From NCBI GenBank assembly GCA_040285745.1, contig JAUFOR010000001.1:496001-560000 (forward strand): a stretch of DNA of 64,000 bases, read 5' to 3'. This DNA comes from Barthelona sp. PCE (taxonomy: Eukaryota). Under the pieces are notes generated by a model. The model did not search any database and was not told where the DNA came from. It saw only the letters and a list, made by a program, of their open reading frames with translations. Position numbers and translations under genes: made by a program. Positions 1-21,601 of the stretch are shown here, piece after piece (position 1 is the stretch's first letter; the number at the start of each line of letters is the position of its first letter).

Positions 1-164
1 AAAAAGAATTCAAAGCTCTGTAGAAATTTAAAAAATAACAAACTAGTGTTATTTTTTATATTTAAACTTAAAATCACTGAAACATAGTATATAAAAAAAG
101 AGGTAAACAAGAAATCAAAATTTTTTCTTTTTCTCTCAAATTTATGTAAAAAAGTCATTTTTCG

Positions 165-303
165 TGTAGTTGATGGCAATCGGAATCTTGATGCACCCGA
201 AACCTAGATGACATACACTGATAGTGAGAGTTAAAGAATAATCCTAGCTAAGTTACTCGGACTCGAGTAACTGCTTTTCGATTTCTTTCCTGAATTCAAA
301 AAA
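165..303 (+). repeat. Element 1 split direct repeat A1
   Basis: Identical by eye to 6163-6301 (offset 5998). Begins tgtagttgatgg and ends gaattc plus an A-run. Contains a perfect 9-bp hairpin agttactcg-gact-cgagtaact. Confidence 0.95.
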
Positions 304-424
304 AAAAAACCCGTCAAAGATTGATATACATTGAGATTTAAATCCTTTGTTCAATGTCGGGTTATGTAAATGAGGGAATAGAATATCTAAGTTTTGAAAT
401 TTAAAAACATACTGTAAGGAGCCC

Positions 425-1053
425 TTGTTGAGGGCCAGGGACATGGTAGTCGCCACCTTTGAGACTATGTACAGCCTCAGGGACACCCCAGACCTCGGGA
501 AGCTCAAGAAATCGTTTCACTTGAGCGGCATAGTACTACCTGTCCTATTGGCATCCTGGGTGCACACTGTAGATGAAATACCGCTGCTAAACCACAATGA
601 GCCCAGCCCCAGCGGGTTTGGGACAGAGGCAGCAGCGAGGGCGGCAAAGGGGAGCAGTACGCGTTACTCCTCCTCTTTATGGGCATGCCCACAGCGGAGG
701 CCACCGCTGGGATAATAAGAAAGGCAACAGCCGACCTTATCAGGTCGCGTGCAGGAATCGCACAAAAAGCTTGGGATATGCTCTTTGAGCTTGCGATTCC
801 TCAGCTAGATCGCGTCAGACATCTAGCACAAAGTACACGTAGGAAGCCCCAGGCGGCCAGTGACTTTGACGAGGCAGTCTTTAAGGCAGTCCTCAAGCCC
901 GCGAGTAACGTCGCGGAAGTACGTGATGAGATTGTCCCAACGTTCAAGGTGAAATCTCGCGGCGTCTCCCGATATGTCGAGGAGGCGCCTGAGGAGCCTG
1001 AGGCCCCACTTTGGTCACACCACAAGGGGGCACAGACCCAGAGGCCAGGGTAA
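425..1053 (+). pseudogene. Element 1 gag-like ORF1 remnants (frameshifted ORFs 425-715 and 679-1053)
   Basis: Sits directly after repeat A1, where element 2 carries ORF1. No diagnostic motif recognised. Confidence 0.4.
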
Positions 1054-1117
1054 GGATGAATGATTTCCTTACCTCGCTGATAGCAGTCCAAGCCCGAAGG
1101 CTCCTCCAGTAATGGAA

Positions 1118-1218
1118 GAACTGCGAGAAACCCCTAAGAACCACACTTGAGAACTGTGAGAAATCCTTAAAAAACCACGTTGAAAAAACTGTGAGAAATC
1201 CGTAATAACCACTTTTGA
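1118..1218 (+). repeat. Three imperfect tandem copies of a ~33-35 bp unit (aactgtgagaaatcc.taa.aaccac..ttga)
   Basis: Units start at about 1118, 1151 and 1186. Confidence 0.8.
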
Positions 1219-2612
1219 CACTACCAGGACCAGCAGCTACCTCGGCTGTAAGTCCTCCCCGGGAATCCCGGACGTTTTAGACAGGATGGGGGTCATCCCT
1301 GACAGCTCCTCTCGGCAAAGAGCCTTGAACGAGAGCGTCAGCTTCCCCAGCAACTCCTCAAATTCTCGAAAGAGAAGACAGTATCACGCTAGTCGTCTAA
1401 AAACGGTAGTCCCAGTGGTCCTAACCCACCGCGTCCTGGAGCTGACGGTAGCCATAGGCAGTGGCTGAGTACCTGATGAAGATCATCCTACTCACCATCA
1501 TCGGCCGTGGCGTCACCCATGAAAAGTCTAGTTTCATGAGGGCCTTGAGAAAAAATCTCGGTAACCGACGCCACATCTATGGCAGATTGTACGAGGGTCA
1601 TAAACTCCCCTGTGCAACCCCCTACCAGCACCTCGACGCTATTCGTCGACCTCCCGCCCCCTCCTGATGTCCCTAAGCGCAAGCAATCCAGGAGAGTGTA
1701 GGCAGGAGAAAGTGAGATGACGAATCTCTCACTTGTAAATCCCAGTTGAGAAACTGTCCGCATCTGTTATGCCGCCACAGCACCGTGAGGCGCTAGTTGG
1801 CCCGCATAACGACACCTTTTTCTCGAAATTCGAGGTTTATTGGAGGATCAAAGGCGCAGAAAGCGTAAAGCTGAAGCACGAAAAAAAGCGTCATTATCCC
1901 CAAACTTAAGGCAGATCTAGCGGCTGCCTCCCGCGATAGGGACTTATACATGGATATAGCGCTTGTCGCATCCCTATAATCCCACATTATCGCACCAGAA
2001 CCTGTTGAGGAGTTGCCACCAACACCAACACCAACACAACCTCACATATCCCCAGTTGTAGGCCCAGTAGGACCTACCCTGAGTGCTGAGTGGTTCAAAA
2101 CCGCCTTAACGTTGCGGTGCAGAAAAATGCCAGGCCATTCTCAGCCAGCATGGATGAACCCCAGCGTGGAGCGAGTGAGACAGTAAGTATACAGGCCCCT
2201 GACCTAACTGGTTGGGCTGAGCCATCTCCGCCAGCGTCTCTTGTGGACGCTATCCCCGGCCTAAAAATACGAGAGCTAGGAATATATCTAGACAAGGCAG
2301 AGAAATTCATGGAGTATACGTTACAGACGAGCCCACATGCGCCTCGTCAAACCCGTCAACGCATCGATACTATGAAAAAATCGCAGGTTTAAGTGACGAC
2401 CATTCCACCAACCTCCAATCGATGTTGACGCACGGAATATGCGCCCATCACGTCATGAGTAATCAAAAAACGTTTCTCAAATCCGTAAAAGACCGTTTAA
2501 CGGTCCATAAGAAAACTGGTTTGAGGATGGATCGCGCATCTCCCTCCTAGTACAGGAAAAGATAGAAAAAAGCGACGCCTTTGTTAAGCTGGATCATGAC
2601 CCAGCTTGGGAA

Positions 2613-5600
2613 ATGTCGAAACCTCCTGTTGGCGTAAAAACAGCTTTTATTAAAATCGGTGTGGTGCCCAAAGGCATCGAAAAATCGGCCATTGTCGCCC
2701 TCAGCCAAGACTGGGCCAGCCGAGAAGACATTGAGGAGTACTTCGAAGATGTCTCAGTAAGTGATATAAGAATTATTACTGATTGCACCCCGATTAACGA
2801 CATGTTTAACATGTTCCCAATGGAACTGCCCAAGGTGCGGTTATTTAACCTGGTAAACCCGAACGATGATTTGTTCTCCATCGATGCATCCAACGGCTTC
2901 CATCTCATCCCCATTGCGGAAGACTTTCAAAAGTTCTTTACATTTTCCCTCAACGGTGGCTTTTACCGGTGCACAAAGTTGTGCTTCGGAGTCACGTTTG
3001 GCCCCGCTATATTCTCAGCGTTGATGAACCTAGCCCTAGCGCCTATGCGTGCTCTAGGTTACCAACTATGGGCCTACATAGACGATGTTTTCGGATGGCA
3101 ATCCCCAGATCGAAGAGGCAGATACCGTAGTGCCAGCGACGCCATGCGTCTGCTCAAGCTAATCTGTTTCTGGTTGGATATCACTATCAACAAGAAAAAA
3201 TCTGTCGAACCATGTAAGAAATTAGATGTGATAGGTTTCACCATCACATCTACCTTTGGACCGCCGGACGATCCAAATATGAAAGTGGCATTAGCACCAA
3301 GTGATGCTAATTGCCGTAAGATCGCGCTAAGGGCTCAAGAACTGGCCCACAAGCTTCATGCAAGGAAAAAAAGACTTCGTAGAACTTGCATCGAAGTGCA
3401 CGGCGTTTAGAGCTGCTAGCAGAAAGCTACATGTCTCCGCCATTACGATCAATGCCATCATACACGAAGCACTAAAGAAAAGAAGAAAGGATAAAGATGG
3501 CATTCCTGGAAAAATAACCAAGTGGCTCATGACGAGATCGCTCACGATCGGCGATCAAGACCTGAAGGAGGTCCAGCATCATGAATACGGCCAGATCGAG
3601 GCCCAGCCAAAGGCAACAGACCCTACCAGCGGGTCTCCACTTGGATTCATTGGTACAAACGAGGCACACCACCTCGCGTGTACCCTTGCGAGTTTAGCCG
3701 ATCACGATTTTCCACCACAACCCCTTCTTTCCACCAGGAAAAAGCGGGTTTTTAATAAGTGACGCTGCTGTAAGTGAAGAGAAAATAAGTATCGCAGGCA
3801 CAGCTTTCGCAACGGATGATGTTGACGAAACCTGTTTCGAACACCTGCTACTTCGCAGTGGAGGCGGCATTGATCTTGCCAAGAATGAACTCATCGATAG
3901 GCTGAATATGCTATCAGCAAAAGATAAAGCGAAAGCGATCCAGAAAACAAAACTGTCGATCGCTTATGCAGAGACGGAACCCCTGATGGCTATGCTGCAC
4001 AGCCTCGGGTCCAAGCTATCCAACGGATATCTCGTTTTAGTATTGCGATAACACTTATGTGGTAGCTGCGACGTACAAACTAACGTCGTGCAATACTGTC
4101 CCCAATGATGCTGCCCGGACCTTGGCAAGAATATTCTGCCGAGAGAAGGACCTTGTTGTGGAAGCGATTTACGTTCCCTCTGTACTTAATCACCTTTCGG
4201 ACATGGCCTCGCGTGGAGAGCCAGTCTGCTGGAAACAATCGAGGGGAACCTTCCTTCAAGAGCTCGTTCCCCCAAAGGAGATTATAATTCTAAATTCTGT
4301 CGTCCCAAGCGCTTATGAGCCGGGCCATACCAGCCCCCCTCATAGCGAGAGCAAAACAGGACAAGAGCGGCCGCTCAGTTGGCTGCATCCGGGTAATGAA
4401 CTTGTTTCGAAAAACACTCTAAAACTACTTAGTGTTTATGCCCGTATCGAGACGACAGGGACTGCCCAAGTTAATGGCACCCTTCTTAAAACTGAGAGAA
4501 GACAAAATTGATACAACACCAGTGTTTGAGGGACTGGAAGATATAATATACACAGTCCCCCGCTCTAAACCGAAGTTTGAGATAGATATGATCGGAAGAG
4601 AGAGCCACACAGTCGAACAGATGGTCCCTGCCCAGTCAGCAGCAGCGGCGTTAGAAATTATTTTACTAGCGGCCCTTAGGACCGGTGTTACTATCAGAGA
4701 AGTTACCACAACCTCTCCCATCCACACCCGTGTGGGGTATGGTATCGCAGTTCGTTCGTCCATGGAAAGAAATGTGCGAAATTACCATCAACCCGGAAAA
4801 AATTTTTCCCTGTCAAATCAAAGGCTGTACAAGCAGGAAGCTTGTGGAAGGGCGACACTGACTTCGTAAGGATAGATGTCCCCTTCATAGTGAGGAAACA
4901 TTTCAGGTTTCCAGCCGAAATAATGAGAGTAGACGAACTCCTGGCGCTGTTCTTAAGAAAAGGTTCCTTAAGCACAGCCAGGACCGCCATCAAGCGATTT
5001 AGACAGTACATTGAAGCTAATCAGAATGCAATAAGGAGGATGTATGGCTGGATAAAAAATCCAAGCCACTGCAAACTGTTAGTAGGTTTACGCATAGCTG
5101 ACCTAGTGGAGAGAGCCGAAAAGGGCGAATCGCCCGAAGGCAACACAGCCCAAATCCTGCATTACAAGAGTAGCACTCTTGATGCATAAGGATCCCTTCT
5201 AAGAAACTCTTTAAGAGTTATTAGACTGCTTACAACCGGCTGCTGGGAGGACGCCTGAGATACAGACAGGCAGTACCTCATTTCAGCTCGTACAAAGATC
5301 ATAACCGACGAAAGCGGAGCAATCCCCAAATCACACAGTTATAAATGCGCTATAAGAGCGTCTGTGGTCCAGAAGCTGCTGTTCCTCGTCCAAGAGAGAG
5401 CCCACGAGACTATCGTAGAGCCCCAAAAGGACAAAAAATTTCTCCACGAGACCAAATAAGTGCTATGGTCTCACAGGAGGTGGAACAATGCATCCTGGAC
5501 TGCCAAATACTGTCGATCCACTACATTCTCGGTTGTAGATCGGGAGAATTGAATTTTATAGAAAAACGACACCTTGAGATCACTCTTCATGAAAACAGCA

Positions 5601-6062
5601 TGGAGCAATCCCTCTCAGTGATAATCCCAAAGCGTAAAACGCATGGGAAAAGCCGAAAAGGACGTTTTGTAACAACTCCCCAAAAAATATTGGTACGAAA
5701 GTGTATTTGCGCCGTTTACTGTGCATGTACTCGAAACAAAGCGGCAGGGCACCGCGTTACTCCTCAGTAGAGGAGCAAAAGACCGGGAAGCAAAAATTCT
5801 AAAAAGGTTTAACACCGTCTTTGACGATCCAAACCTCATAGGTGCACCGCCTGGAGCGAGATTCAACCCCCACGCCATAAGAGCGGGGAGATGCCAAGAT
5901 ATTATCAAAATTCATGGTGACAAAGACACAGCCAGACAGATTGGGGGCTGGAGCGCCAATGAAACCATGAATAAGTATTACCTGGATATTCACGACCTGG
6001 AGTACGCCATGCCGGGGGAACTGTACAGTATAAACCAGATACGAGAATGGGCGGTATCTTGA
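2613..6062 (+). pseudogene. Element 1 RT-RNase H-linker-tyrosine recombinase, disrupted by frameshifts and stops
   Basis: RT motifs IGVVPK, RIITDC, FSIDASNGF, LCFGVTFGPAIF and YIDD (3075-3086). RNase H motifs SDA (3758), *YCDN (4038) and NHLSDMASRG. YR motifs LGCRSGEL, HAIRAG (5871) and GGW. All are collinear with element 2 ORF2 but spread over several frames. Confidence 0.88.
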
Positions 6063-6162
6063 TTGATCCGTACCCGTCCTGTCTAACGGTTCGTTCTGTC
6101 TGCCCTCCCAACATGCAGGCTGTCACTTCAGTAAACCATCCAAGGTGTAGGATAGAGGATAA
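6050..6162 (+). repeat. Element 1 repeat B1 (contains the YR stop codon)
   Basis: First 24 bp recur at 6575-6598 and the remaining 89 bp at 12681-12769. Confidence 0.93.
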
Positions 6163-6301
6163 TGTAGTTGATGGCAATCGGAATCTTGATGCACCCGAAA
6201 CCTAGATGACATACACTGATAGTGAGAGTTAAAGAATAATCCTAGCTAAGTTACTCGGACTCGAGTAACTGCTTTTCGATTTCTTTCCTGAATTCAAAAA
6301 A
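6163..6301 (+). repeat. Element 1 repeat A2
   Basis: Direct copy of 165-303, abutting B1. Confidence 0.95.
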
Positions 6302-6574
6302 TTAAAAAAGACAAAAAAACCAGAAAGTTAAATTTCAAGCATAAATCTTCGAAACTTTTTGTTGTTTTTCCGTGAGCTTGGAAAAAACTACTCCGCACAC
6401 ATTCTGTGCTGGATTATCCAAGAAAGTCTTTCATCATCTTCTGCATAAATTATATCCTAGTGCAGAAAGAACGCAGGTAAGTTTTATCAAGAAATTTTAC
6501 AAAAAATTTCATCATATTTTCTCAATAGCGAGACAGTTAGCCACTAATCATGGCTCTACGGGTACGTAGCGTGC

Positions 6575-6598
6575 GGCGGTATCTTGATTGATCCGTAC
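6575..6598 (+). repeat. Element 1 repeat B2, left part
   Basis: ggcggtatcttgattgatccgtac = 6050-6073. Confidence 0.9.
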
Positions 6599-6731
6599 GG
6601 TGACATACAGGCGCTAGCCTTCAGACTTTATACTTGAGGTAGTAAACAGCGGAGGGGGACGAAGCGAACCGTCATGTGTAGTAGGTGTCCGTAGGACCCG
6701 ATACGGTTTTTCTTACCTTTTTCAAAAAAAA
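6599..6731 (+). repeat. Element 2 repeat A1
   Basis: Identical to 12449-12581 (offset 5850). Ends in a ccgta/tacgg hairpin, a T-rich tract and an A-run. Confidence 0.95.
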
Positions 6732-6768
6732 TCTTACTTTAGTATTGCTGCGCAAGAAATTAATTGCA

Positions 6769-8265
6769 ATGACATACTTTAGAGCGGAAAGGCAAACGAA
6801 AGAACAAGTTGCGCGCGCTATCCAGCATAGATGCGAGACGTATATTGCGCGCCTGAGTGTCGTGGTTATGGAGACCTTGTGCAAGGTCCACGAGGCGGAT
6901 CCCGCCGGTAAAGCCCACCTGATTGAGGCTCTCCCGAGTTACGGGCGCGGCGAGTTCGCCGACGTAATGCTCTCACCGTGCGTGTTGAGCGAGGACTTCC
7001 GGGGGTGGTTACAAGCATTGGGCGAAGATGAAAGTCAACAAGGTGTTGACAAGGTCCTTCCAGCAATTTCCTTTAGCCTAGAGAGGTTTAGGGAACTTGC
7101 AAATCTTTTCGGCATGCGCCCATCCGAGTCATTAGCCAAGAATATTGAGGAGTCGGACATTAGAGGAGTCCGGGAGATGATTAGAGCTGCCGCAAATCAC
7201 TGGAAGGCAGCTCCGGCTCTCATAACGCAGGAACTGGATGCGTTCACGGCAGCAAGGAGGGAGGCTGACAAGATCGAGGGAATATCGGACGTCGACAAGA
7301 AACAGCTCATCAAGACGATTACGCAACAGGTAACGCATGCGAAGGAGCAGGCGCTGAACGAGACGCGGAAGCAGACAATGGCCGCGTGGGAAGAAGAACC
7401 ATCCGATGACGAGACCGACACCCAGCACACGTCTTCGAATGCAGGAATGAACACCGCCATGCAGATCGCAAGGGACGCTACCGCTTTGGTGAGCGAGACG
7501 ATGAAAGAGGCCAGGCAGAGTAGGATGAGAGCCACAACCTATAACGAACCTTTCGATGCGGGCATCCAACAAGACAAACTACTCAGGAAGGTCAAACACC
7601 AATGGCAAAGAGGTCTGACATACGATAAGTTTACTGCCGCCATGGACAAGTTCCTCGAGGCGGAGATAAAGCGCAACCCCACGATCTTCGCTGGCGACAT
7701 TGATCTCGGGCTCTGGAAAGTGGACGACGTCCTTCCGGACGCGTTTGTCGAGGAGGTGACGGACGACCACAAGGATAATTGGTTCCGCGAGTGGCAAATT
7801 CGTCTGAGGGACTTCAAGACGATCTACGAGGACAAGGTCGGATCCCAGTATGAACACGAGTGGCAAACCAAGCGTTTGTACTTACTGATGGAAGCCGCAG
7901 CGGAAATGGCGTTGGGAGACACTCTCCTACTAATCGGCAAGCTGTATGAGGAACGGCCACACCTCATCCCGACCTTCATCGCTGCCGTCTCTCCATATGG
8001 TCCCAGCCGGGCCAACAGGGCGTCAGGTATCTACAACGACGAACTCAACGTCGACCACGTGCCTGACAACTGGGTTGACGAGAATCGCGTGAAGCAATTC
8101 CTCACTAAGACGCTGGGAGTCGGTAGCTCCGGCATCATGGTCGAGTTTGACCCCACCGCCACCAAGAAGGCGTTCAACCATTCCACGAGAGCCCCCAAGC
8201 GCACGCACCGTCCTAAGACGCAAAAGAAGAAACAAGCGTTTAGCGCCAAAGAGGAGGAGAAGTGA
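6769..8265 (+). CDS. Element 2 ORF1, gag-like helical protein (498 aa from the first ATG)
   Basis: First ATG at 6769, just after repeat A1. Occupies the gag position. Basic C-terminus; no CCHC knuckle seen. Confidence 0.7.
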   Translation: MTYFRAERQTKEQVARAIQHRCETYIARLSVVVMETLCKVHEADPAGKAHLIEALPSYGRGEFADVMLSPCVLSEDFRGWLQALGEDESQQGVDKVLPAISFSLERFRELANLFGMRPSESLAKNIEESDIRGVREMIRAAANHWKAAPALITQELDAFTAARREADKIEGISDVDKKQLIKTITQQVTHAKEQALNETRKQTMAAWEEEPSDDETDTQHTSSNAGMNTAMQIARDATALVSETMKEARQSRMRATTYNEPFDAGIQQDKLLRKVKHQWQRGLTYDKFTAAMDKFLEAEIKRNPTIFAGDIDLGLWKVDDVLPDAFVEEVTDDHKDNWFREWQIRLRDFKTIYEDKVGSQYEHEWQTKRLYLLMEAAAEMALGDTLLLIGKLYEERPHLIPTFIAAVSPYGPSRANRASGIYNDELNVDHVPDNWVDENRVKQFLTKTLGVGSSGIMVEFDPTATKKAFNHSTRAPKRTHRPKTQKKKQAFSAKEEEK

Positions 8266-8334
8266 AATCGTTCGTCTCCCCCCGCGCGTGATAGTAAATA
8301 TCTATCTGACAAGGGTGTGGGAGACGCAAATGAT
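8263..8334 (+). promoter_or_regulatory. Candidate stop-codon readthrough signal: TGA plus 3' stem-loop
   Basis: TGA at 8263-8265. cgtctccc (8273-8280) pairs with gggagacg (8319-8326), extendable by atcgtt/aatgat. Confidence 0.55.
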
Positions 8335-11300
8335 CCCAATGCGGTCACAGCGCTCGCGGACAGGGTCGGCGAGCTCTCCATCGAGAACGTCAAATTGAAG
8401 AAGGAGATCAAGAGCCTCAAGAAGGAAATCCCTAAGAAGCAGCTCAAAGCCGCGAAGATGGAACTTCGCGCAGCTACCAAACTCGTGGAGCTCGAAGACA
8501 AAAGACTAGAAGCCATTAAAGCTCGGGAAAGGAGCACACAGAAAACAAAAGCACCTGAGGACGTTAAACGGGATAAGCCCCGTAAGGAGAAAGCACCAAC
8601 AGCTACTAGCGTGCAGAAGATGATCTCCAAGGAGATCAACAAACTCAAACACGAGGTTGTAGATGAGCGGAATAACGTCCAAATCTCAAGGAATCCGAAG
8701 GAGGTAGTCGGCACAGACACCATGCAGTGGCCGGCCGCGGCGCCACCAGTAGCTCTGCTGAAGCACCTCCCACCCGACATCTTCCAGAAGGGCGGCCCAA
8801 GTCAACGAGTACTCAAAGAGGTGGTCCTAGGGGTTACCGGAACATGGGATATCCTCGGAACAGACCAGATGAAGATCAATTCAGCCGACACGCCCACGGA
8901 ACAGTTCGTTAGGGACGCCGCGCGCGTCGCTGGCCTCAGCTGCGAAGAAATTGAGAAGACAGTCCGACTGCTCGTGACTGAGGGCGTAACGCGCGACATG
9001 GTCGTTATCGAAGGAAAGAAGCCTCGCAGGCAGGAGCCAGTACGTCACTGGTACAAAGACGACGCCGTCGAATTGAACCTGGCCGTAACCGCGCTCAAAA
9101 GTAAGGACCTGATCAAAGAGGTCCCCATCGAAGAGATCGAGGACGAACGAAGGGCATTCATTTCCATCGGCGCGGTCCCGAAGAATGCAGAACCGGACTC
9201 AAACAACATGTTCGCTCCGACGCAGAAGTTCGAATTTGACGTCACATCGCCGGACAACGAGCACAGGGTTATCGTCGACTGTACTAACACGAACTCTATG
9301 TTCGCCAACATTCCAATGGAACTCATCAAAACCCACTCTCTCGAGATTGTCATGGGTGGCAATCTCATGTATTCCGTCGACGCAAAGGATGGTTTCACGC
9401 TCATTCCACTGGACGAAGAGCTACAAAAACTGTTCTCATTTACACACGAAGGTAAGCTTTATCAATGCACTAGAATGCCGTTCGGAGTTTCATTCGGCCC
9501 GGCCATCTTCGCCCGCATGATGAACCTGGCAACGACCGCAATGCGTGCGTTGGGATTCAACATCTGGAGCTACGTCGACGACGCTTTCGGATGGGAACGA
9601 TCCCTCAGCAAAGCGAGGAACTCGATGATGCTGTTCATAATCATCGCGTCGAAACTTGGCATCAAGCTAAACTACAAAAAGTCCGTCAGTCCTTCGTACA
9701 AATTGGACATCATCGGCTACACGCTGAGCACCGACGACCAGTCTGACGGCGGCCGGCTAGTCTCAACAATTAGACCGTCGGACAAGAACATCAGAAAGAT
9801 CAAAGAGATGGCTCGCGTAATGCGAAATAGAATCGACACAGCAGAACAAATCCCTGTCAGGGACATCATGAAGCTCGATGGCAAACTTGTATCATTTGCC
9901 AACGCTTCGACGATTCTTCAGCGGGTTCACCTACAGCTACAAGCAGTACTGAAGGATCTCGACGCCCAATACGATAACGCGATATTTGACTCGAGCAGGA
10001 ACAAGGGCCTACGCCTTCTCCTACCTCTTCCACTAGCCGACGCACTCACGAGGATCGTTGAATGTAACTTTGAACCGAAGACGCTGAGCTGCGGTAGAGC
10101 TAAGGTAACATTACTGAGCGACGCCATGAAGGACCAGAAACATATAGGCATTGGAGCGAAGGCATACCCAGACGACGACCAAGAGCTCTCGTTTGAACTT
10201 CTCCACAGGATGGGAGTGAACGAGCAAGGAGCAAGAAGGATGTTGACACTTCTCGACGATCTGCCAGAACAGGAAAGAGTAGACATCGAGCAGAACACTG
10301 TCGCAACAATCGCGGAGCAGGAGATGGTACCGATCGTCGAGCTACTCAAGACTAAGGGCAGACAGCTGAGGAACACCGAAGTCGTCTGGTATTGCGACAA
10401 CACGAACGTATGCGCCGCTGTCGCGAAGGGCTACAGCAAAAACAAGGTCCTCAACAAGGGGGCCCGCATAGTGATGGAGCTGTGCGAAATGTGGGACGTG
10501 ATCGTCACACCAATCTACATCAACTCAGAACAGAATTATCTTCCAGACAGCATCTCAAGAGGAGCATCGTCGGAGTCGTGGACCAACTCTACGACATTCG
10601 TGCACGAGATTCTCCCAGCTAGGGTAATCGAGTTCAAGACATCCGTCGTCGCAAGCCTCTACGAACCTGGACACATCCCAGCACTGTACGTCCGCGGTTT
10701 CCAGCCCACAAAAGGAAAGTCCAGGAGATCAACGAAAGCCGCACATGTGACAAGACAATGTCTCGGACAAGACCTTATCTCTCTAGGCGAGTATGACCTC
10801 AAACGGAATGCGCTCAAGGTCGACAATGTTGCGAATGGGACTGCACACTGTACAGGTAAGCTCAAAATCGTCGAAGGATTCGATGACACAAGATACACCG
10901 TCCCTCTATCGAATATGGCGATCATCACGAGAGACAACGAAAGAATCGAGGCAACAGTTCCGACTTACTCCGCAGCCACAAGCTTAGAGATAGTCATTCT
11001 CAAAGTGTGCAGAACCGGCGCGGAAGTAGATGTGATCCTCCCCGGACCACTCCCGTCTTGCCCATTGTGGGCTACAATCGCACAAAAGACCATCCCATTA
11101 AGTGACGGATCCATAAAGATAAGAGTTACGAGAGAAAAGGTTCTCGGCGGCGAACCCGAGGACTACAAGCCCGCTGGAGCACGCACTCAGAACCCGGTAC
11201 AGGTACGGGGCAAATCACTATCTCTGGCAGACCTGTTCGCCATCCCACCGTCGATGGACTACGACGAAGTGCTCGAACTCTTTCTGAAAAAAGGAGCGCA

Positions 11301-12432
11301 CCAACCAACGAGGAACATGCTACATCGCTTCGGGAACTTCGTTCAAAAGGTGCACAGCACAGAAATAGTGGACGTCGCATGCCCAGGAAACGAAAAGAGA
11401 CTTGAAGAGCTGATAATCGAGTTCAGATTCAGACTCGAACAGGAAACAAAATCGAAGAGGCGTGCGAACGGCGACACCACCGAAGTATGGAGGTACACCT
11501 CAGACACGATTAACAGTTACATTTTCCACCTGCGTAAAGGACTGCTGGTTCTGAAAATGTTCATCACCGACAAGAAATCTCTCCTCACGACCGAAGAACT
11601 CGAGCAACTCGTCCAGCTTAGGGCGGCAGTAATCAGATGCACACTGAGCGAGAGCTCAGAAACACAGAAATTCGCCATCAGCACGTCAGCAATCAGATTC
11701 CTGGCGGCAAGAGAGATTGAAGAGCTTAAAGCACTGGTCCAGGAAGGTACCACGAAGAAGAAGGCCCTTCAGAAGCTAAACAAAGTAAGAAGAAGAATTG
11801 CTATGATGTCATCAATGTACAACTTAGGATGCAGAGCGGCGTCTCTTGCCGCAGTCAAGACCCACCAAATTGAAGTCTCAAAATCCGGCGATGTCACGGT
11901 AACGCTGGACAAAGTGAAGAACCAACAGGGTCGACCAACCAGCTACATGATCCCCAGAAACGTATGGGAGCTGGGCACACTGCACGACTATTTAAACGAC
12001 GCTGTGCAAAGAGCAAAAGAAGGAGGTAAAGAGTTTATTTTCTCGAACGGCGGAGAAGCCCAGAGCGTCTCGAATGCATTAAACACCATGTTCCGAGATT
12101 ACAACGAGAAAATCAAGCAATCTGACCACAAGAATGCAAGCAAATTCAGAGTATTCAAAATGACAGCCCATGGCCTTAGAGCCGGCAGGGCAAAAGAGAT
12201 AGCACAACATCCAGATGCGACTGTACGAGTATCAGCGCAAGGAATGGGTCTCTGGAAGGATGTGAAGGCGATGAACCTTGACTATCTCACGAAACCACTA
12301 TTGACGTTTGAGGAACGAGAGGTGTTGAGTCCGATGGAATTGGAAGGATGGGTTTTAGGCCACTTCCCGGACGAAACACCCTCTACACGTGAAGGCGAGC
12401 CTTCCCACGTGAGCGTTCCCCGACGTCAATAA
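8266..12432 (+). CDS. Element 2 ORF2: reverse transcriptase-RNase H-linker domain-tyrosine recombinase fusion, in frame with ORF1
   Basis: Open from 8266; first ATG at ~8458. RT motifs AVPK, RVIVDC, SVDAKDGF, MPFGVSFGP and YVDD (9571-9582). RNase H motifs LSDA, AEQE, WYCDN and NYLPDSISRG. YR motifs LGCR, KVK, HGLRAG (12169), GLW and DY. Confidence 0.92.
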   Translation, partial: NRSSPPARDSKYLSDKGVGDANDPNAVTALADRVGELSIENVKLKKEIKSLKKEIPKKQLKAAKMELRAATKLVELEDKRLEAIKARERSTQKTKAPEDVKRDKPRKEKAPTATSVQKMISKEINKLKHEVVDERNNVQISRNPKEVVGTDTMQWPAAAPPVALLKHLPPDIFQKGGPSQRVLKEVVLGVTGTWDILGTDQMKINSADTPTEQFVRDAARVAGLSCEEIEKTVRLLVTEGVTRDMVVIEGKKPRRQEPVRHWYKDDAVELNLAVTALKSKDLIKEVPIEEIEDERRAFISIGAVPKNAEPDSNNMFAPTQKFEFDVTSPDNEHRVIVDCTNTNSMFANIPMELIKTHSLEIVMGGNLMYSVDAKDGFTLIPLDEELQKLFSFTHEGKLYQCTRMPFGVSFGPAIFARMMNLATTAMRALGFNIWSYVDDAFGWERSLSKARNSMMLFIIIASKLGIKLNYKKSVSPSYKLDIIGYTLSTDDQSDGGRLVSTIRPSDKNIRKIKEMARVMRNRIDTAEQIPVRDIMKLDGKLVSFANASTILQRVHLQLQAVLKDLDAQYDNAIFDSSRNKGLRLLLPLPLADALTRIVECNFEPKTLSCGRAKVTLLSDAMKDQKHIGIGAKAYPDDDQELSFELLHRMGVNEQGARRMLTLLDDLPEQERVDIEQNTVATIAEQEMVPIVELLKTKGRQLRNTEVVWYCDNTNVCAAVAKGYSKNKVLNKGARIVMELCEMWDVIVTPIYINSEQNYLPDSISRGASSESWTNSTTFVHEILPARVIEFKTSVVASLYEPGHIPALYVRGFQPTKGKSRRSTKAAHVTRQCLGQDLISLGEYDLKRNALKVDNVANGTAHCTGKLKIVEGFDDTRYTVPLSNMAIITRDNERIEATVPTYSAATSLEIVILKVCRTGAEVDVILPGPLPSCPLWATIAQKTIPLSDGSIKIRVTREKVLGGEPEDYKPAGARTQNPVQVRGKSLSLADLFAIPPSMDYDEVLELFLKKGAHQPTRNMLHRFGNFVQKVHSTEIVDVACPGNEKRLEELIIEFRFRLEQETKSKRRANGDTTEVWRYTSDTINSYIFHLRKGLLVLKMFITDKKSLLTTEELEQLVQLRAAVIRCTLSESSETQKFAISTSAIRFLAAREIEELKALVQEGTTKKKALQKLNKVRRRIAMMSSMYNLGCRAASLAAVKTHQIEVSKSGDVTVTLDKVKNQQGRPTSYMIPRNVWELGTLHDYLNDAVQRAKEGGKEFIFSNGGEAQSVSNALNTMFRDYNEKIKQSDHKNASKFRVFKMTAHGLRAGRAKEIAQHPDATVRVSAQGMGLWKDVKAMNLDYLTKPLLTFEEREVLSPMELEGWVLGHFPDETPSTREGEPSHVSVPRRQ

Positions 12433-12680
12433 ACCTACTTCAGTATAAGGTGACATACAGGCGCTAGCCTTCAGACTTTATACTTGAGGTAGTAAACAGC
12501 GGAGGGGGACGAAGCGAACCGTCATGTGTAGTAGGTGTCCGTAGGACCCGATACGGTTTTTCTTACCTTTTTCAAAAAAAAAGGTTTTAGGCCACTTCCC
12601 GGACGAAACACCCTCTACACGTGAAGGCGAGCCTTCCCACGTGAGCGTTCCCCGACGTCAATAAACCTACTTCAGTATAA
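12351..12680 (+). repeat. Element 2 3' end: B1 (12351-12448), A2 (12449-12582), B2 (12583-12680)
   Basis: B1 and B2 are identical 98-mers; A2 matches A1 with one extra A. Confidence 0.95.
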
Positions 12681-12769
12681 CCGTCCTGTCTAACGGTTCG
12701 TTCTGTCTGCCCTCCCAACATGCAGGCTGTCACTTCAGTAAACCATCCAAGGTGTAGGATAGAGGATAA
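12681..12769 (+). repeat. Element 1 repeat B2, right part (element 1 right end)
   Basis: Identical to 6074-6162. Confidence 0.93.
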
Positions 12770-12896
12770 GCTATGTCTGCTTTTCACCGTCGCATTTTAT
12801 ATGTCAAAATTGCCCTATCTAAACCTCATTAGATGTTTAGAAATGAGTTTATAAGTTGTTATTAATAGCAATGAATAATTTCCGAATAGCAGTTCA

Positions 12897-12968
12897 TCGG
12901 GCGTCGTATAATGGCTATTATTCCGGTCTGTCGCACCGGAGACCAGGGTTCAATTCCCTGCGCTCGAG
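12897..12968 (+). tRNA. tRNA-Asp (GTC)
   Basis: Acceptor tcgggcg/cgctcga, anticodon arm ccggt-ctGTCgc-accgg, T-arm caggg-ttcaatt-ccctg, followed by a T-run. Confidence 0.93.
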
Positions 12969-13044
12969 TTTTTGCTTTTCCAAATATAATGTATGAATTA
13001 AAAAAATATTATATGTTTTCTTTTGTTCGTTTCCGTTGAAGCAC

Positions 13045-13116
13045 TCCCCTATGGCTAAGTGGTATAGCGCTGCACTCGTAATGCAGTGGTCCCCAGTTCG
13101 ATTCTGGGTGGGGGAA
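13045..13116 (+). tRNA. tRNA-Thr (CGT)
   Basis: Acceptor tccccta/tggggga, anticodon arm ctgca-ctCGTaa-tgcag, T-arm cccag-ttcgatt-ctggg, downstream T-run. Confidence 0.93.
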
Positions 13117-13681
13117 CGTCCTTTTTTTTTGCATGCGAACTGTTATGCCTCCCTACGTGTCTGTGGGGGTTCAGTAACGTGGTGGACGCGTCCGAAGGCG
13201 TCCGAAAAGGCAGCAGGCGTGTGGAAATATTTTTTTGTGTTTGTTGAATGATGGAAGCATGTGGTTGACGGAACTCATGGCAGAGTGAATCTGTGACTCA
13301 TGAATGTGCTGTCCGAATTACGTCCTTTATCGTACATTCCGGATTTCTCTTTTTTACTATTTTTTATGGGGTGGGAACTCAATTACCCGACCTCGAGCTT
13401 AGGAACTTATTCACGCCATCCAACTAGATATCTGTCAGTAAACATGCATGTATCCGAGAGAACTCAGCCCCTGTGAAGTCATCTCTTTTGTAGAACCAAA
13501 AAACTCATTTTTTATTATCATTCCATTGAGTTTAGAGTTACCTGAACTCGCGTTGTCTTAGATCTTTACGATACCCATGTTTGCATATCCAGCTGTGCTT
13601 TTGCCAATAATTCAAGAAAGATATGAATGAATTAAAAAGAAAGCAAGCTGCAAATATCTGTTTTGTGTCTTTGAAACTCCT

Positions 13682-15580
13682 TTATAAATTATGACTTATT
13701 TCAAAAAACAACACAGCTTCTTTTCGTATTTGACAATCAATATTGGACACAGGATGAAACTGGCTTTGAATCAATAGTGTAATTAAACTATGTCTGACTT
13801 GTCTGATCTTAAAACTTCTATATTCATCATCAAATGTAAGAATATCTTTAACGATATCATAACCATCCAACTGCTTATGTAAGCGCGTAATTGTACCCCT
13901 TTCTGATGATGTAAAAGCGTAATAGGGATTTTCAGTGAATTTCCACGGCAATTGCAATTGATTATGTTCTACTCCTTCCCCGTTGAATATCCACATTTTT
14001 TCTGAGGAAATGAATATATTTTCATCAATAAAAAAGTCGAGCGCTGAGAAATTAGTGATATTAAAGAAATGAAACCTTTCAAAAGTATTGTTAACATAAG
14101 TTAAAACTTCTATTCCCTGACGTTTAAAAACCAATGTCATCAGTGGATTGTACTTTGAAGGTACAACATCAGCATAATCATTTTCATCTGTGCTGTAAAA
14201 GTCAAACTGAATGTGTTTCTCTTTCATAATCATTATTCCAATACATGATGACCCACCAACCCATACGACGTTCATTGAAGGACGAATTTCATACCATGTA
14301 TTATTTGGCACAACATATCCTTCTGTACCATCAACATAAAGTATTCCGTCGTCAATATGAACAAATCTACCTGCCACGTACTCTATGTCTATGTCTATAT
14401 CTTCATTAACATCAAGCGTAATTACATCAGATTGGTAACTGCCTTCATGAGCCCAAAATGCCTTATCTTTTCGAAAAATCTGAGTTGCAATGTCTCCATA
14501 AGCATATGTCTTTGCTGCAAATAGATCTTTGGTTCCTTCACTCGTGGAACCATGTATCACAACACTGGGGTCTTGAGTACCAAACATGACAAATGAGACT
14601 ACAAACTGTGAAGAATAAAAATTGGGAAAGAGAAGTGGGGCACCGCTTAAACTCTTGCTGAGAAAGCTGTTAAGTGGGATACAGTACCCGTCTACAGAAT
14701 ACTCTATCGTGAAAGGGATAAGTTTATCGTCAACCATTCCAAATAGTGTATTATTTAAATATATAAACTTGCGGAACTGAAAAATTGACATATTCAACAA
14801 ACATTCTGTGCCGTTTTCATTAATTCTATAAGCTTTGATTTCACCCAACTTCATAAAAACAAAAAAGTGCAAATCATCCACCAAAAAAGCTTGACTTGGA
14901 ACATCATTTTCTTCCTCGAATCTAAATTTCACATCAAGCTCCTGGACATCCACCATTCCATCCAATACTGTGATCCTATACATTTTTTTTGGTGGAGAAT
15001 AAAAATAAAAAGAAGGGTGTAAACTATTAATGATCTCGATGAAAAATCCAAATTTTGGGATTGGTATTTTCACGAGCTGAAAGGTATTGCCCACCAATAT
15101 TGGTGTTTGATAACATTCATCAACAAGAACAACAGAAACTCTCCACATTTTTGGCCTCCGAAGATATTGTCCGTCCAGCAAAATCTGCACAGTGCTACTA
15201 TGTATGTTATAAACCTTAATAGCTCTGGGTAAAAAATTGATGATATGGTGATCCATTAATCTAACTCTTCTTAAACCTTCCGTATTCGGGACTGCACATG
15301 AAAATTCCTCAGTAAAGGAGTCAACACCATTGGATACATACGTCTTTAACCGGTTCGTCTTGACTATATTCTTTTTTGAAAAAATCACATCGCTATCAGC
15401 TAGTTCAAGTTCTTTATACATAAATGGCATTTTTAATGCATGCTCAAATGCAGGAATAAGAGCAAAGTTGTGTTCTGCTGGCTTTGGAGTGAAATTATGC
15501 GGTTTAAACACTAAGTAAGAGTGTTTGAAGGTTAGTATGTCTCCATTATCAGTAAAGTTATGTTCGTTAAACCGTGGCAT
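13682..15580 (-). CDS. Hypothetical protein, member of the ~600-aa divergent beta-rich family
   Basis: Long ORF; probable ATG at 15580 (MPRFNE). C-terminal pattern shared with four other ORFs. Confidence 0.75.
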   Translation of the reverse strand: MPRFNEHNFTDNGDILTFKHSYLVFKPHNFTPKPAEHNFALIPAFEHALKMPFMYKELELADSDVIFSKKNIVKTNRLKTYVSNGVDSFTEEFSCAVPNTEGLRRVRLMDHHIINFLPRAIKVYNIHSSTVQILLDGQYLRRPKMWRVSVVLVDECYQTPILVGNTFQLVKIPIPKFGFFIEIINSLHPSFYFYSPPKKMYRITVLDGMVDVQELDVKFRFEEENDVPSQAFLVDDLHFFVFMKLGEIKAYRINENGTECLLNMSIFQFRKFIYLNNTLFGMVDDKLIPFTIEYSVDGYCIPLNSFLSKSLSGAPLLFPNFYSSQFVVSFVMFGTQDPSVVIHGSTSEGTKDLFAAKTYAYGDIATQIFRKDKAFWAHEGSYQSDVITLDVNEDIDIDIEYVAGRFVHIDDGILYVDGTEGYVVPNNTWYEIRPSMNVVWVGGSSCIGIMIMKEKHIQFDFYSTDENDYADVVPSKYNPLMTLVFKRQGIEVLTYVNNTFERFHFFNITNFSALDFFIDENIFISSEKMWIFNGEGVEHNQLQLPWKFTENPYYAFTSSERGTITRLHKQLDGYDIVKDILTFDDEYRSFKIRQVRHSLITLLIQSQFHPVSNIDCQIRKEAVLFFEISHNL

Positions 15581-15966
15581 CCCTCTTAAAAAAAAAATCC
15601 TCCTTAATAAATGATATGAATGCCCGTAAAAAGTTAAAAACAATTTTGAAAAGCTTATAAAGTGTTATATTGTGGCTGTTTGATGTTTAACAAGTTCTAT
15701 TATGATGTTCAATTACTCTCCATTCACATAAATTTACATTGTTCTACAGCAATCGTTTTATGGGTGATTGCATTTTCAGGTATGCAATGCTTTTGTTTAG
15801 TAGAATGTTTCTGAAGGTGCTCGAAACGCGATTCTATAAGAATACCTACGATTAAAAGTAAATTATGCCTAATGAAAAAACAAGCGGTCGTATTCTTAAA
15901 TTGAAGGTAAGACTGAAAAAAACTTTGTATTCAGAAAACACACCCACAGTTATCAGGTATACCATG

Positions 15967-17844
15967 TTAATACACATTGCCAAAGTCCAAAACGGTGAAA
16001 GGGAGTGAGTGCAAATCAGTGAAAGAACAGCCAGCCAACCAGTCAGTCAGCAAGAATTTCTTTGTGGATTTTTGGATTGCTTCGCTTTCATAGCAAAGGA
16101 ATTCTCTGAATACAACATCAAAAGATTCGATATCCAGATCCAAAACTGTAACTTTATGTTCACTATAATCAAAAAGACGATGGCAAACTGGACCTCGCTT
16201 AAATGACTCAACGCACTGTACCTGACCATTTTCGACACTATAAATACCCTCATCGAAAACTATAGTGGTTGGTGAGACAAAAAATTTAAAGACACCGGCT
16301 TCAGAACAGTCAATTTTTAAATCACCAACTTGAAGCTCAGAATTTGCCTTATTCATAATCATTTCCACGTTAAACGGGTTCGGGTGCATTCTCTTGGGAA
16401 AGGTGCGCTCATTCTGCCATTCACCATTCCGTTTTTTCAGTAAAAAATGATTTTCAGAGTTCTCAATTAACATAAGTGTTGGATAATACCAGACCAACTT
16501 TGGTTGCAAGATGAGGTCAGTGGCGAACAGCAGCCTCGTTTCTCCGTCTTTATGTTGAAAAACTTGACAGCAGTCCGGCTCCCATTCGTTTTTCATTGCA
16601 AAAAAGACAATCTCGGTTTCGGTCGCTTTTCCAATAATGACATCCTGCTTTGTTACATACGGCACATCCATACTGTCAGATATGTTGATGTACGTGTTCA
16701 ACTCTTGGGTCAAAGCATATTGCCGACCAACAGCAGCCCCTATCGCTGGAACCGTCTTACAAAGCATTGCGAATGGCTTGTTGCTGCGATGGTAGCACAC
16801 ATCATCGCTCAAATGCAGTCCTATTAGATGGCGATCGGAGTGCATAAAAAAAACATTGTTTGATAGAAACATCTTTGAGGACAGGAAGTCGCTTCTCAAA
16901 ACAGCCTCTGTTGCTGCTGTGTCGGGGGCGGGATATGTCGTAACATTGCCGGGGTGGTATTTATAAAAGTATGTAGAAGAAATGCAATCAAAGCTTCTTG
17001 AGAAATTAAAATTCTGAGGAAAGAAATACTCGTTCTCACTAATGTTTGTATCAATAACTCTTAAACCTCCATTGTCGACATATAACATTTGTATTTTCCC
17101 TCCGATTTCACACTGGATAAGAAGTATATGTTCACGTACATCTAATATCCAAAACGTTACAGATGTCAGCATCATGCACTCTTGGAGCTCAGGAAACGCA
17201 GCTATCAGGTCAAACGTAGCCAACTCACCATCTTCAACATATAAAACGACTGGAAAAAGAGATAAATGATTCATGTATGTAATCGCATTAGTACAGGGAC
17301 ATACGTGGAGGTTGTGATTGATCTGGGTGATAGTTGCGCCATCCCATCCCTTGACAACACCATCATGTGTGATAAAGAAGTTGGATGTACAGCATTGAAC
17401 TGCTTGATTGCAGAGCTTCTCACCCATTAATATTTCATCGTTTTGGAGCACAAATCTAACTGTTTCGTGGGGAAAAACACACAGCCCCTCAGTTGGATCA
17501 AAGAAATAAACTTTTAACAAACCTGTAATTGGGAATTTTTGCTTGCTGTGAAACTCAAGATGTTTAGATGCATTCTGCCTGAAAAATATAACAGTATTAA
17601 AGTTTATGATGCAGTAAAAGATGTTTTTTGACCTCAAACACTGCTGAATCTCTGCATATTTAGCAATTTCAGGGATATATAATCTGGTACCTTTGTTTTC
17701 ATCAACTAATAAGCTTCTTCCGACAATTTTGTTCCCTTTTTCAACATCTAAAAATCGGTTGACAATGAAGCCCGTTTTCGTGCGAACAACATGCGTATCA
17801 TTCAGCCCAGACGCCATTGTATACTCCTGCCTCGTGCGTGGCAT
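15967..17844 (-). CDS. Hypothetical protein, ~600-aa divergent beta-rich family
   Basis: 625-aa ORF with an NPF...FFVS...LTDWL C-terminal pattern. Confidence 0.75.
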   Translation of the reverse strand: MPRTRQEYTMASGLNDTHVVRTKTGFIVNRFLDVEKGNKIVGRSLLVDENKGTRLYIPEIAKYAEIQQCLRSKNIFYCIINFNTVIFFRQNASKHLEFHSKQKFPITGLLKVYFFDPTEGLCVFPHETVRFVLQNDEILMGEKLCNQAVQCCTSNFFITHDGVVKGWDGATITQINHNLHVCPCTNAITYMNHLSLFPVVLYVEDGELATFDLIAAFPELQECMMLTSVTFWILDVREHILLIQCEIGGKIQMLYVDNGGLRVIDTNISENEYFFPQNFNFSRSFDCISSTYFYKYHPGNVTTYPAPDTAATEAVLRSDFLSSKMFLSNNVFFMHSDRHLIGLHLSDDVCYHRSNKPFAMLCKTVPAIGAAVGRQYALTQELNTYINISDSMDVPYVTKQDVIIGKATETEIVFFAMKNEWEPDCCQVFQHKDGETRLLFATDLILQPKLVWYYPTLMLIENSENHFLLKKRNGEWQNERTFPKRMHPNPFNVEMIMNKANSELQVGDLKIDCSEAGVFKFFVSPTTIVFDEGIYSVENGQVQCVESFKRGPVCHRLFDYSEHKVTVLDLDIESFDVVFREFLCYESEAIQKSTKKFLLTDWLAGCSFTDLHSLPFTVLDFGNVY

Positions 17845-17899
17845 GTCAAATAGGTGAAAAGGAATAAAAAGTTTTTACAACCCAAATTACAAAAAGTCT

Positions 17900-19471: not shown

Positions 19472-19680
19472 TATTTCATGAAGTATGCCCTGATTTAAAT
19501 GTGAAGAAAGCTGAAAATTTTTAAACAGGATCTCTTTGTTTGTTTGTACCTGTTGAAGTGTTGTTTGAAATGCAAGCTGAAGGGTTGACGCATGTAACAA
19601 GCTGTTGAGCGTTGCAAAATACACATATTGAAAGAAGGTTGCGCTTTTTTATTTATTTAACCAGCACAGTTAGAAAAAAC

Positions 19681-21423: not shown

Positions 21424-21601
21424 AAATAATGTCTAAAAACAGAATAGAAGGAGGATAAATGATATTGCAGATAGAATGGCACATGTTCATGTTACAACAA
21501 AAGTTCCAGTTTCAGGGGATTGTACCCACAAAAATATCATTTTAAGGAGCTTTGTGAATTGTATAGTGTTTTTGGATTTTATACCATTCTTGTTGGGAAA
21601 C

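Follow-up and report, generated by a model that had tools for sequence, protein, structure and literature searches.

The reverse-transcribing elements that integrate by means of a tyrosine recombinase (YR) form the least understood retrotransposon order, and most of what is said about their replication and integration consists of models. The usual YR retrotransposon has three open reading frames (ORFs), often overlapping, for gag, for reverse transcriptase and RNase H (RT/RH) and for the YR, according to the available portions of PMC9210276, PMC6681497 and PMC3266345. A 64,000-nucleotide stretch of the Barthelona sp. PCE genome (assembly GCA_040285745.1, contig JAUFOR010000001.1, positions 496,001 to 560,000 of the forward strand; hereafter the window, in whose coordinates all positions are given) contains an element, here called element 2, in which RT, RNase H and YR follow one another in a single uninterrupted frame. 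An initial annotation of the DNA took this fusion, together with the lack of a protease, as the sign of a possible new lineage. The locus thus raises the question of whether element 2 represents a new class of retrotransposon, a variant of a known one, or an accident of one copy.

We find that element 2 belongs to a known class, of which it is a variant, rather than to a class of its own. It is probably an intact and young YR retrotransposon of the DIRS order with split direct repeats of the Ngaro/PAT type, and it has apparently been active recently, given its identical repeats and five further copies at 98-100% identity. Two features are new. The first is a gag-like ORF1 that shares the frame of pol and is parted from it by a single TGA, the rarest stop among the neighbouring host genes. 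The second, as judged from sequence comparison, is a very divergent lineage placed outside the methyltransferase (MT)-bearing DIRS clade.

Split direct repeats and a precise nested insertion

The repeats of element 2 follow the order A1-[ORFs]-B1-A2-B2 typical of Ngaro/PAT-type split direct repeats, and the members of each pair are 100% identical (Table 1). Since the outermost of these repeats set the ends of the element, its extent can be given as 6599-12680. No pair of inverted repeats (0 pairs) was found across window positions 1-14000.

Element 2 is nested in the B2 repeat of a second, degraded copy, element 1. When 6599-12680 was removed in silico, the B repeat of element 1 was restored and proved 113/113 identical to 6050-6162. 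Because the excision gives back an intact B repeat, no target base was duplicated and none was lost in this single insertion, and the intact B1 of element 1 (6050-6162) provides the empty-site sequence. Target-site duplications are the product of DDE integrases, unlike conservative tyrosine recombination. The precise nested insertion is as predicted for conservative recombination by a tyrosine recombinase. A domesticated host gene is ruled out by the repeats, by the several near-identical copies and by the nested insertion.

Table 1. Features of element 2 and element 1 in window coordinates.
Feature	Position	Strand	Evidence or remark
Element 2, complete YR retrotransposon, 6,082 bp	6599..12680	+	split direct repeats; in silico excision
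Repeat A1 of element 2, 133 nt, poly-A run at its end	6599..6731	+	133/133 identity with A2
ORF1, gag-like by position, 498 codons from ATG 6769, TGA end	6769..8265	+	ORF list
In-frame TGA separating ORF1 from pol frame	8263..8265	+	lone stop in 1915 codons, 6685-12429
Pol-YR reading frame, open directly after TGA	8266..12432	+	ORF list
Reverse transcriptase, ORF2 residues ~275-520	9139..9876	+	Pfam RVT_1 and PDB sequence matches
RNase H, residues ~590-760 (D602, E669, D694, D744)	10084..10596	+	hidden Markov model and conservation
Conserved middle domain, no assigned family, ~225 aa, residues ~760-985	10594..11271	+	kept in four Barthelona families
Tyrosine recombinase region	11269..12429	+	Cre profile, hhalign, XerC, catalytic residues
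YR catalytic codons	R1173 11833, K1201 11917, H1285 12169, R1288 12178, W1313 12253, Y1323 12283		
Repeat B1 of element 2, 98 nt, overlapping last 27 pol codons	12351..12448	+	98/98 identity with B2
Repeat A2 of element 2	12449..12581	+	identical to A1
Repeat B2, 3' end of element 2	12583..12680	+	identical to B1
Element 1, degraded second-family copy with element 2 nested in its 3' repeat	165..6598	+	
Element 1 repeats	A1 165-309, B1 6050-6162, A2 6163-6309, B2 start 6575-6598	+	
Element 1 B2 remainder, downstream of element 2	12681..12769	+	joined to 6575-6598 = 113/113 with 6050-6162

RT, RNase H and a conserved middle domain

The listed pol ORF (ORF2, 8317..12432, plus strand) runs for 1371 codons without an internal stop. 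The initial annotation had placed an RT with YVDD, the D-E-D-D residues of RNase H and a full YR set in one frame, and all of these residues were located in 8317-12432. The RT matched Pfam RVT_1 (E=1.3e-14, ORF2 residues 339-470), with no other ORF2 family above noise, and its YVDD occupies residues 419-422 (nt 9571-9582). A sequence search of the PDB with ORF2 returned the RTs of caulimovirus, foamy virus and Ty3 (best 6.5e-8). For RNase H, there was no Pfam match in ORF2 itself. A hidden Markov model (HMM) of residues 590-760 from four Barthelona families was compared with 147 RT proteins from outside Barthelona, and in 72 of them it matched the RNase H region following the RT at E<1e-5 (best E=3.5e-18). 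Among the 86 best non-Barthelona RT matches of <=1000 aa, which were scanned with Pfam, RT_RNaseH was present in 18 and RT_RNaseH_2 in 8. E669, D694 and D744 are invariant in the Barthelona family alignment, and D602 is present in all rows but one, a gene model gapped there.

The domain that follows RNase H has the position occupied by an MT in PAT-like elements of the DIRS order. Its HMM found nothing better than E=0.39 in the non-Barthelona RT proteins, the hhalign comparison with the DIRS MT domain gave no match (P=0.096), and the best score in the ESM Atlas, 0.75, was under lead level. A word-based homologue search with residues 760-1371 retained one of 8000 candidates, a member of its own family, and a metagenome scan with the alignment of RNase H and middle domain gave 233 pattern matches, of which 0 were confirmed. 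No Dam match was seen at E<=1 in Pfam, and an MT HMM made from RT-linked proteins found no Barthelona protein. These comparisons suggest that no MT domain follows RNase H and that a domain of unknown fold, for which remote homology is possible, would fill that slot.

A D[TS]G motif occurs neither in ORF1 nor in the first 300 aa of ORF2, in agreement with the initial annotation, and Pfam gave no protease and no rve (DDE integrase) at E<=1. As a distinguishing feature, however, the missing protease does not hold up, since the absence of a protease is described as the rule in the YR retrotransposon order (PMC3783388, available text).

At the beginning of the frame, ORF2 residues 10-80 (8317-8560) are rich in Lys and Glu and gave a weak bZIP_1 match (E=0.0015); this segment is probably a coiled coil.

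The tyrosine recombinase

The YR catalytic residues R1173 (in LGCR), K1201, H1285 and R1288 (in H1285-G-L-R1288), W1313 and Y1323 are invariant across the four Barthelona families, which are 18-23% identical in this region. When a four-family YR profile was compared with the PDB, the top 17 matches were Cre/Tre recombinases (E=0.0019-0.06), and the RIAEI, TKT, HSAR and GGW motifs of Cre aligned with R, K, HxxR and W of the Barthelona sequences; we take the Cre residues in these motifs to be R173, K201, H289/R292 and W315. An hhalign comparison with the YR domains of 8 RT-linked proteins, 5 of them Phage_integrase-positive, gave P=0.0016, with an alignment of 143 columns that places the catalytic residues opposite one another, and three control comparisons gave P=0.096, 0.28 and 0.76. 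NCBIfam reported XerC on the YR region (E=0.0029), and for Pfam Phage_integrase the E-values were 0.011 with the fragment of element 1 and 0.071 with the second-family protein P0157. The word-based homologue search with the YR profile retained 0 of 7997 candidates, and PHROGs gave no integrase match.

Despite the fusion, the YR might act as a separate protein, released by internal initiation, host proteolysis or autoprocessing, so that the single frame would have no mechanistic meaning; the covalent coupling of cDNA synthesis and integration put forward in the initial annotation is a conjecture. Such a release would agree with the long, poorly conserved linker and helical N-terminal region ahead of the catalytic core, and with the YR ORF of its own that usual YR retrotransposons possess (PMC9210276 and PMC6681497, in the available text). 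Two observations speak against it, namely the lack of a protease domain and the persistence of the fused order in four families at about 20% identity, and we hold a separately acting YR to be unlikely.

The fusion is shared by copies and families

The word-based search returned one cluster, a Barthelona sp. PCE hypothetical protein at 98% identity; its five members measure 1849-2533 aa and lie on 3 other contigs or sites. These five annotated copies are 98-100% identical to the window copy and are all continuous through RT, RNase H, middle domain and YR. In one of the gene models (P0005, 2533 aa), the element copy is fused to a downstream ABC-transporter-like protein, and public annotation lists these transposon genes as hypothetical host proteins.

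The order of RT, RNase H, middle domain (X) and YR recurs in three more Barthelona families at 20-38% identity. Family II (P0157, 1836 aa) aligns to ORF2 residues 99-1324 within one protein, and families III and IV (P0009, P0011) have the same domain order and the same catalytic residues; families II-IV are known from gene models, not from DNA. Element 1 likewise shows RT, RNase H, middle domain and YR in this order (nt 2637-5984), as the initial annotation had stated, although broken over frames 3,3,1,2,3. An indel that joined two ORFs in the window copy or in the assembly would also produce one long frame, and the initial annotation had itself named a copy-specific indel as the result that would undo its proposal. 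No point in favour of such an accident was found. Because the fusion is common to the near-identical copies and to three divergent families, it is not a copy-specific indel, and we regard the accident as extremely improbable. The order kept in families II-IV means that the fusion is old within the Barthelona lineage.

The fusion itself was put forward as new, on the ground that the YR normally occupies an ORF separate from RT-RH. That ground holds as the usual description (PMC9210276, PMC6681497), with exceptions in the available text of two sources: cases with RT/RH and YR in the same frame are noted in fungal Ngaro elements (PMC3783388), and copies of TATE in Bodo saltans have "a single ORF structure" (PMC6681497). 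In addition, RT and YR occur in one predicted protein in 8 of the 154 non-Barthelona proteins examined. Four named fused proteins come from beetles, a crinoid and a springtail; they are automatic gene models, and three of the four carry an MT-type domain (Dam or PCIF1_WW). P0126, an ENA-sourced protein of 958 aa, has no MT; its domains are an RT, an RNase H, a SAM-like domain and a YR core, the last matched at E=1.5e-25. With such precedents, the claim of novelty for the fusion cannot be upheld.

An in-frame TGA between ORF1 and pol

ORF1 matched no Pfam family, and we infer its gag role from position. Its frame, which is also that of pol, is open over 6685..8265 (526 codons), and the annotated homologues begin at the ORF1 Met (ATG 6769). 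Beyond the TGA, the first ATG appears only at codon 48 of the listed ORF2 (nt 8458), and the pol terminator is TAA. Window 12800-64000 has 28 host ORFs of at least 250 codons, which stop at TAA in 14 cases, TAG in 12 and TGA in 2, making TGA the rarest terminator in the neighbourhood. A sense meaning of TGA is ruled out: 26 of these 28 long ORFs are free of TGA and close with TAA or TAG, and TGA is the stop of the other 2.

The gene models of all five annotated copies bridge the TGA, with a junction EEE/NKYL that corresponds to the removal of 8262-8294. Since every one of the five other copies needs bridging here, the stop belongs to the active element. Gag-Pol could be produced by splicing rather than read-through, because the removed stretch has the appearance of a small intron: it is 33 nt long, a multiple of 3, opens with GT, closes with AG, and is left out in 5/5 models. 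The same models, however, skip further short in-frame pieces that remain an intact ORF in the window copy, for example 27 aa absent from P0001 and stretches absent from the P0003-P0005 models. As the predictor bridges defects by short "introns", splicing cannot be argued from the 33-nt "intron". The Barthelona gene models were made with AUGUSTUS trained with RNA-seq hints, and the available methods text of the genome paper gives no element-specific support (PMC11316075). We consider splicing of 8262-8294 doubtful. From the sequence, passage of the TGA by read-through would be the most likely route to Gag-Pol, with about an even chance of being the right one, and separate initiation of pol the least likely of the three routes.

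Expression of pol through read-through of an in-frame stop is known from gag-pol of the gammaretrovirus type. Element 2 resembles this arrangement in having gag and pol in one frame with one stop codon between them; it differs in having TGA as the stop and no significant structure downstream, and read-through is here only proposed. An in-frame TGA in a genome that seldom uses TGA as a terminator offers a testable case of either programmed read-through or micro-intron splicing.

Phylogenetic placement

We searched 1.84 billion representative proteins by phmmer with ORF2 residues 231-1371. The search gave 5181 matches at E<=0.001, 330 at E<=1e-10 and 2 at E<=1e-30. These 2 come from Barthelona, as do P0008, P0009 and P0011 among the next few, and the best match outside Barthelona reached E=8e-21 and covered the RT only. 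The lineage of element 2 is thus very divergent by sequence. The proposal of a distinct protist clade agrees with this divergence, but the order to which the clade belongs, DIRS, is already known.

Pfam assigned RVT_1 to all 86 of the scanned relatives, Dam (the DIRS methyltransferase) to 16, Phage_integrase to 3 and rve to 0. The long matches P0014, P0017, P0023 and P0113 carry rve and Integrase_H2C2 and are of the gypsy type. An RT tree was obtained by a quick LG+G4 search from 131 rows of the 161 RT-matching proteins, after leaving out 16 near-duplicates or cluster members and rows with <150 model positions, including P0008. Eight gypsy-type rows, together with one more, are separated at support 100 from the 122 that remain. 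Barthelona is represented by two pairs: the window groups with P0007 (support 100), P0009 groups with P0011 (support 99), and the stems of the pairs are long (0.96 and 1.13). Both pairs fall in a weak group (Shimodaira-Hasegawa-like approximate likelihood ratio test, SH-aLRT, 91) with the MT-less P0051, P0140 and P0153, which end soon after RNase H. All 57 MT-bearing rows, which are found among the 119 non-Barthelona, non-gypsy rows of the tree, belong to a 110-row clade (support 89) that does not include this group. The tree program flagged long-branch joins.

An alternative explanation is that these elements form a superfamily apart, defined by the single-frame order gag-TGA-RT-RH-X-YR and a private middle domain. 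The position of the long-stemmed pairs outside the MT-bearing clade would fit it, as would the searches: beyond RT/RH only Barthelona proteins match, the first non-Barthelona match is confined to the RT, and the middle domain and YR were without sequence relatives in the searches run. The termini, however, are of the classical Ngaro/PAT split-direct-repeat type and gag-RT-RH-YR is the order of Ngaro, and the tree comes from a quick search in which the relevant group has an SH-aLRT of 91 only and long-branch joins were flagged. With no named reference elements among its rows, the RT tree would accommodate a Ngaro-like position as well as a separate superfamily. We keep the separate superfamily as a tentative alternative. 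Equally tentative is its wider form, that barthelonids might carry an undescribed, deep-branching YR superfamily of at least four families with single-frame coding via a leaky TGA and one unprocessed polyprotein for both reverse transcription and conservative integration.

Several points weigh against our preferred reading of element 2 as an intact DIRS-order element with a fused pol and YR. The uninterrupted ORF is proven at the DNA level only for the window copy, and for the other families, as for the animal proteins, the fused models are automatic annotation that bridges defects. The tree rows are unnamed database proteins, with no named Ngaro, PAT, VIPER or TATE reference among them. The hairpin 4 nt past the TGA is not significant (z=-1.36; 18 of 200 shuffles fold as well). 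Every single YR score is weak and all are under curated cut-offs, and the AlphaFold model of the YR region is poor (predicted local distance difference test, pLDDT, 48), as is that of RNase H with the middle domain (pLDDT 39). Foldseek with the YR model gave no PDB match at E<=0.001; XerH (E=0.2) and Cre (E=0.65) stood near the top and were not significant. The HMM searches and structure prediction on ORF2 that the initial annotation had suggested fared differently, with RVT_1 found at E=1.3e-14 and the structural models too poor to use, except that the predicted order of secondary structures fits the RNase H and YR folds. The individually weak YR scores nevertheless all point the same way by sequence.

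Element 1 and the genomic setting

The proteins of element 1 are 60-94% identical to P0157/P0007 and contain many frame changes and stops. Its coding region is heavily broken, yet identity between the repeats stays at 113/113 for B and 143/145 for A; mobilisation of a defective copy in trans, homogenisation of the repeats or assembly indels are possible explanations for broken genes between clean repeats. Between A2 and the start of B2 in element 1 lies an AT-rich stretch of 265 nt (6310-6574), with no other copy within the window, whereas A2 and B2 are adjacent in element 2. It may represent a further small insertion, the third here, or else a spacer specific to the family.

Over window positions 1-12000, G+C is 0.47-0.53, above the rest of the window, and the A-over-T skew is strong. 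The rest is densely packed with long intron-free ORFs on both strands, for which reason the window is assigned to a compact eukaryotic nuclear genome. The products of the neighbouring host ORFs include a WDR19/IFT144-like protein, an SMC protein, tubulin, an MCM8-like protein and an ankyrin protein. Four successive ORFs of 574-695 codons each, with gaps of about 50-60 nt, occupy 15967-23563, and of the four scanned ORFs in which no Pfam family was seen, three fall in 13682-23563. This suggests genes particular to the lineage, in a genome that is very compact.

Proposed life cycle and significance

In the life cycle we propose, a transcript would extend from A1 to B2. Most ribosomes would halt at the TGA and release Gag, and a minority would pass it, by read-through or after removal of the 33-nt GT..AG stretch, to make Gag-Pol-YR. 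RT and RNase H would then produce the cDNA, with the A and B repeats permitting a complete, probably circular copy, which the recombinase would insert conservatively and without target-site duplication. The absence of a duplication is borne out by the nested insertion; the other steps follow, by analogy, the general model for YR retrotransposons.

Element 2 could be a tractable system for this order, as it is compact, intact and apparently active, with identical repeats and several near-identical copies, and its clean insertion without duplication, with the empty site preserved a few kb upstream, adds to its tractability. The host is a culturable, free-living anaerobic flagellate, a metamonad with a small and gene-dense genome. 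No report of YR retrotransposons in metamonads was among the literature matches listed, and the word "retrotransposon" has 0 occurrences in the available text of the Barthelona genome paper (PMC11316075). The public "hypothetical protein" models, including the one joined to an ABC transporter, are hereby flagged as transposon genes.

Comparison with known systems

Element 2 shows the features by which the DIRS order is recognised, namely RT with RNase H of the type related to LTR retrotransposons, a tyrosine recombinase with the R-K-HxxR-(W/H)-Y set instead of a DDE integrase, no aspartic protease and, in the one insertion seen, no target duplication. With DIRS1-like and PAT-like elements it shares an RT/RH of the same broad type. 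In window 1-14000, it lacks the inverted terminal repeats and internal complementary region of DIRS1-like elements. PAT-like elements also have split direct repeats, but element 2 has no MT domain, and its RT lies outside the MT-bearing clade. The TATE of Bodo saltans, as described in the available text, is similar in that one ORF holds all coding domains, in its split direct repeats and in its protist host (PMC6681497). There, however, the order is gag-like, YR, RT/RH (1464 aa; PMC6681497, same portion), and in element 2 the YR is last; the VIPER/TATE order of gag, YR and RT/RH differs in the same way from the YR of element 2, which is C-terminal to RT/RH.

The closest resemblance in organisation is to Ngaro-like elements, which, in the available text of PMC8547959, PMC13465315 and PMC9210276, have the same A1-[ORFs]-B1-A2-B2 termini and gag-RT/RH-YR order and, like element 2, no MT, no protease and no DDE integrase. 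Element 2 differs from them in its very divergent sequence, with a YR below the Pfam threshold, and in lacking an SGNH-hydrolase ORF. Its gag is in the pol frame behind a single TGA, a conserved domain of about 225 aa is set between RNase H and YR, and RT-RH and YR are encoded not by separate ORFs but by one uninterrupted ORF.

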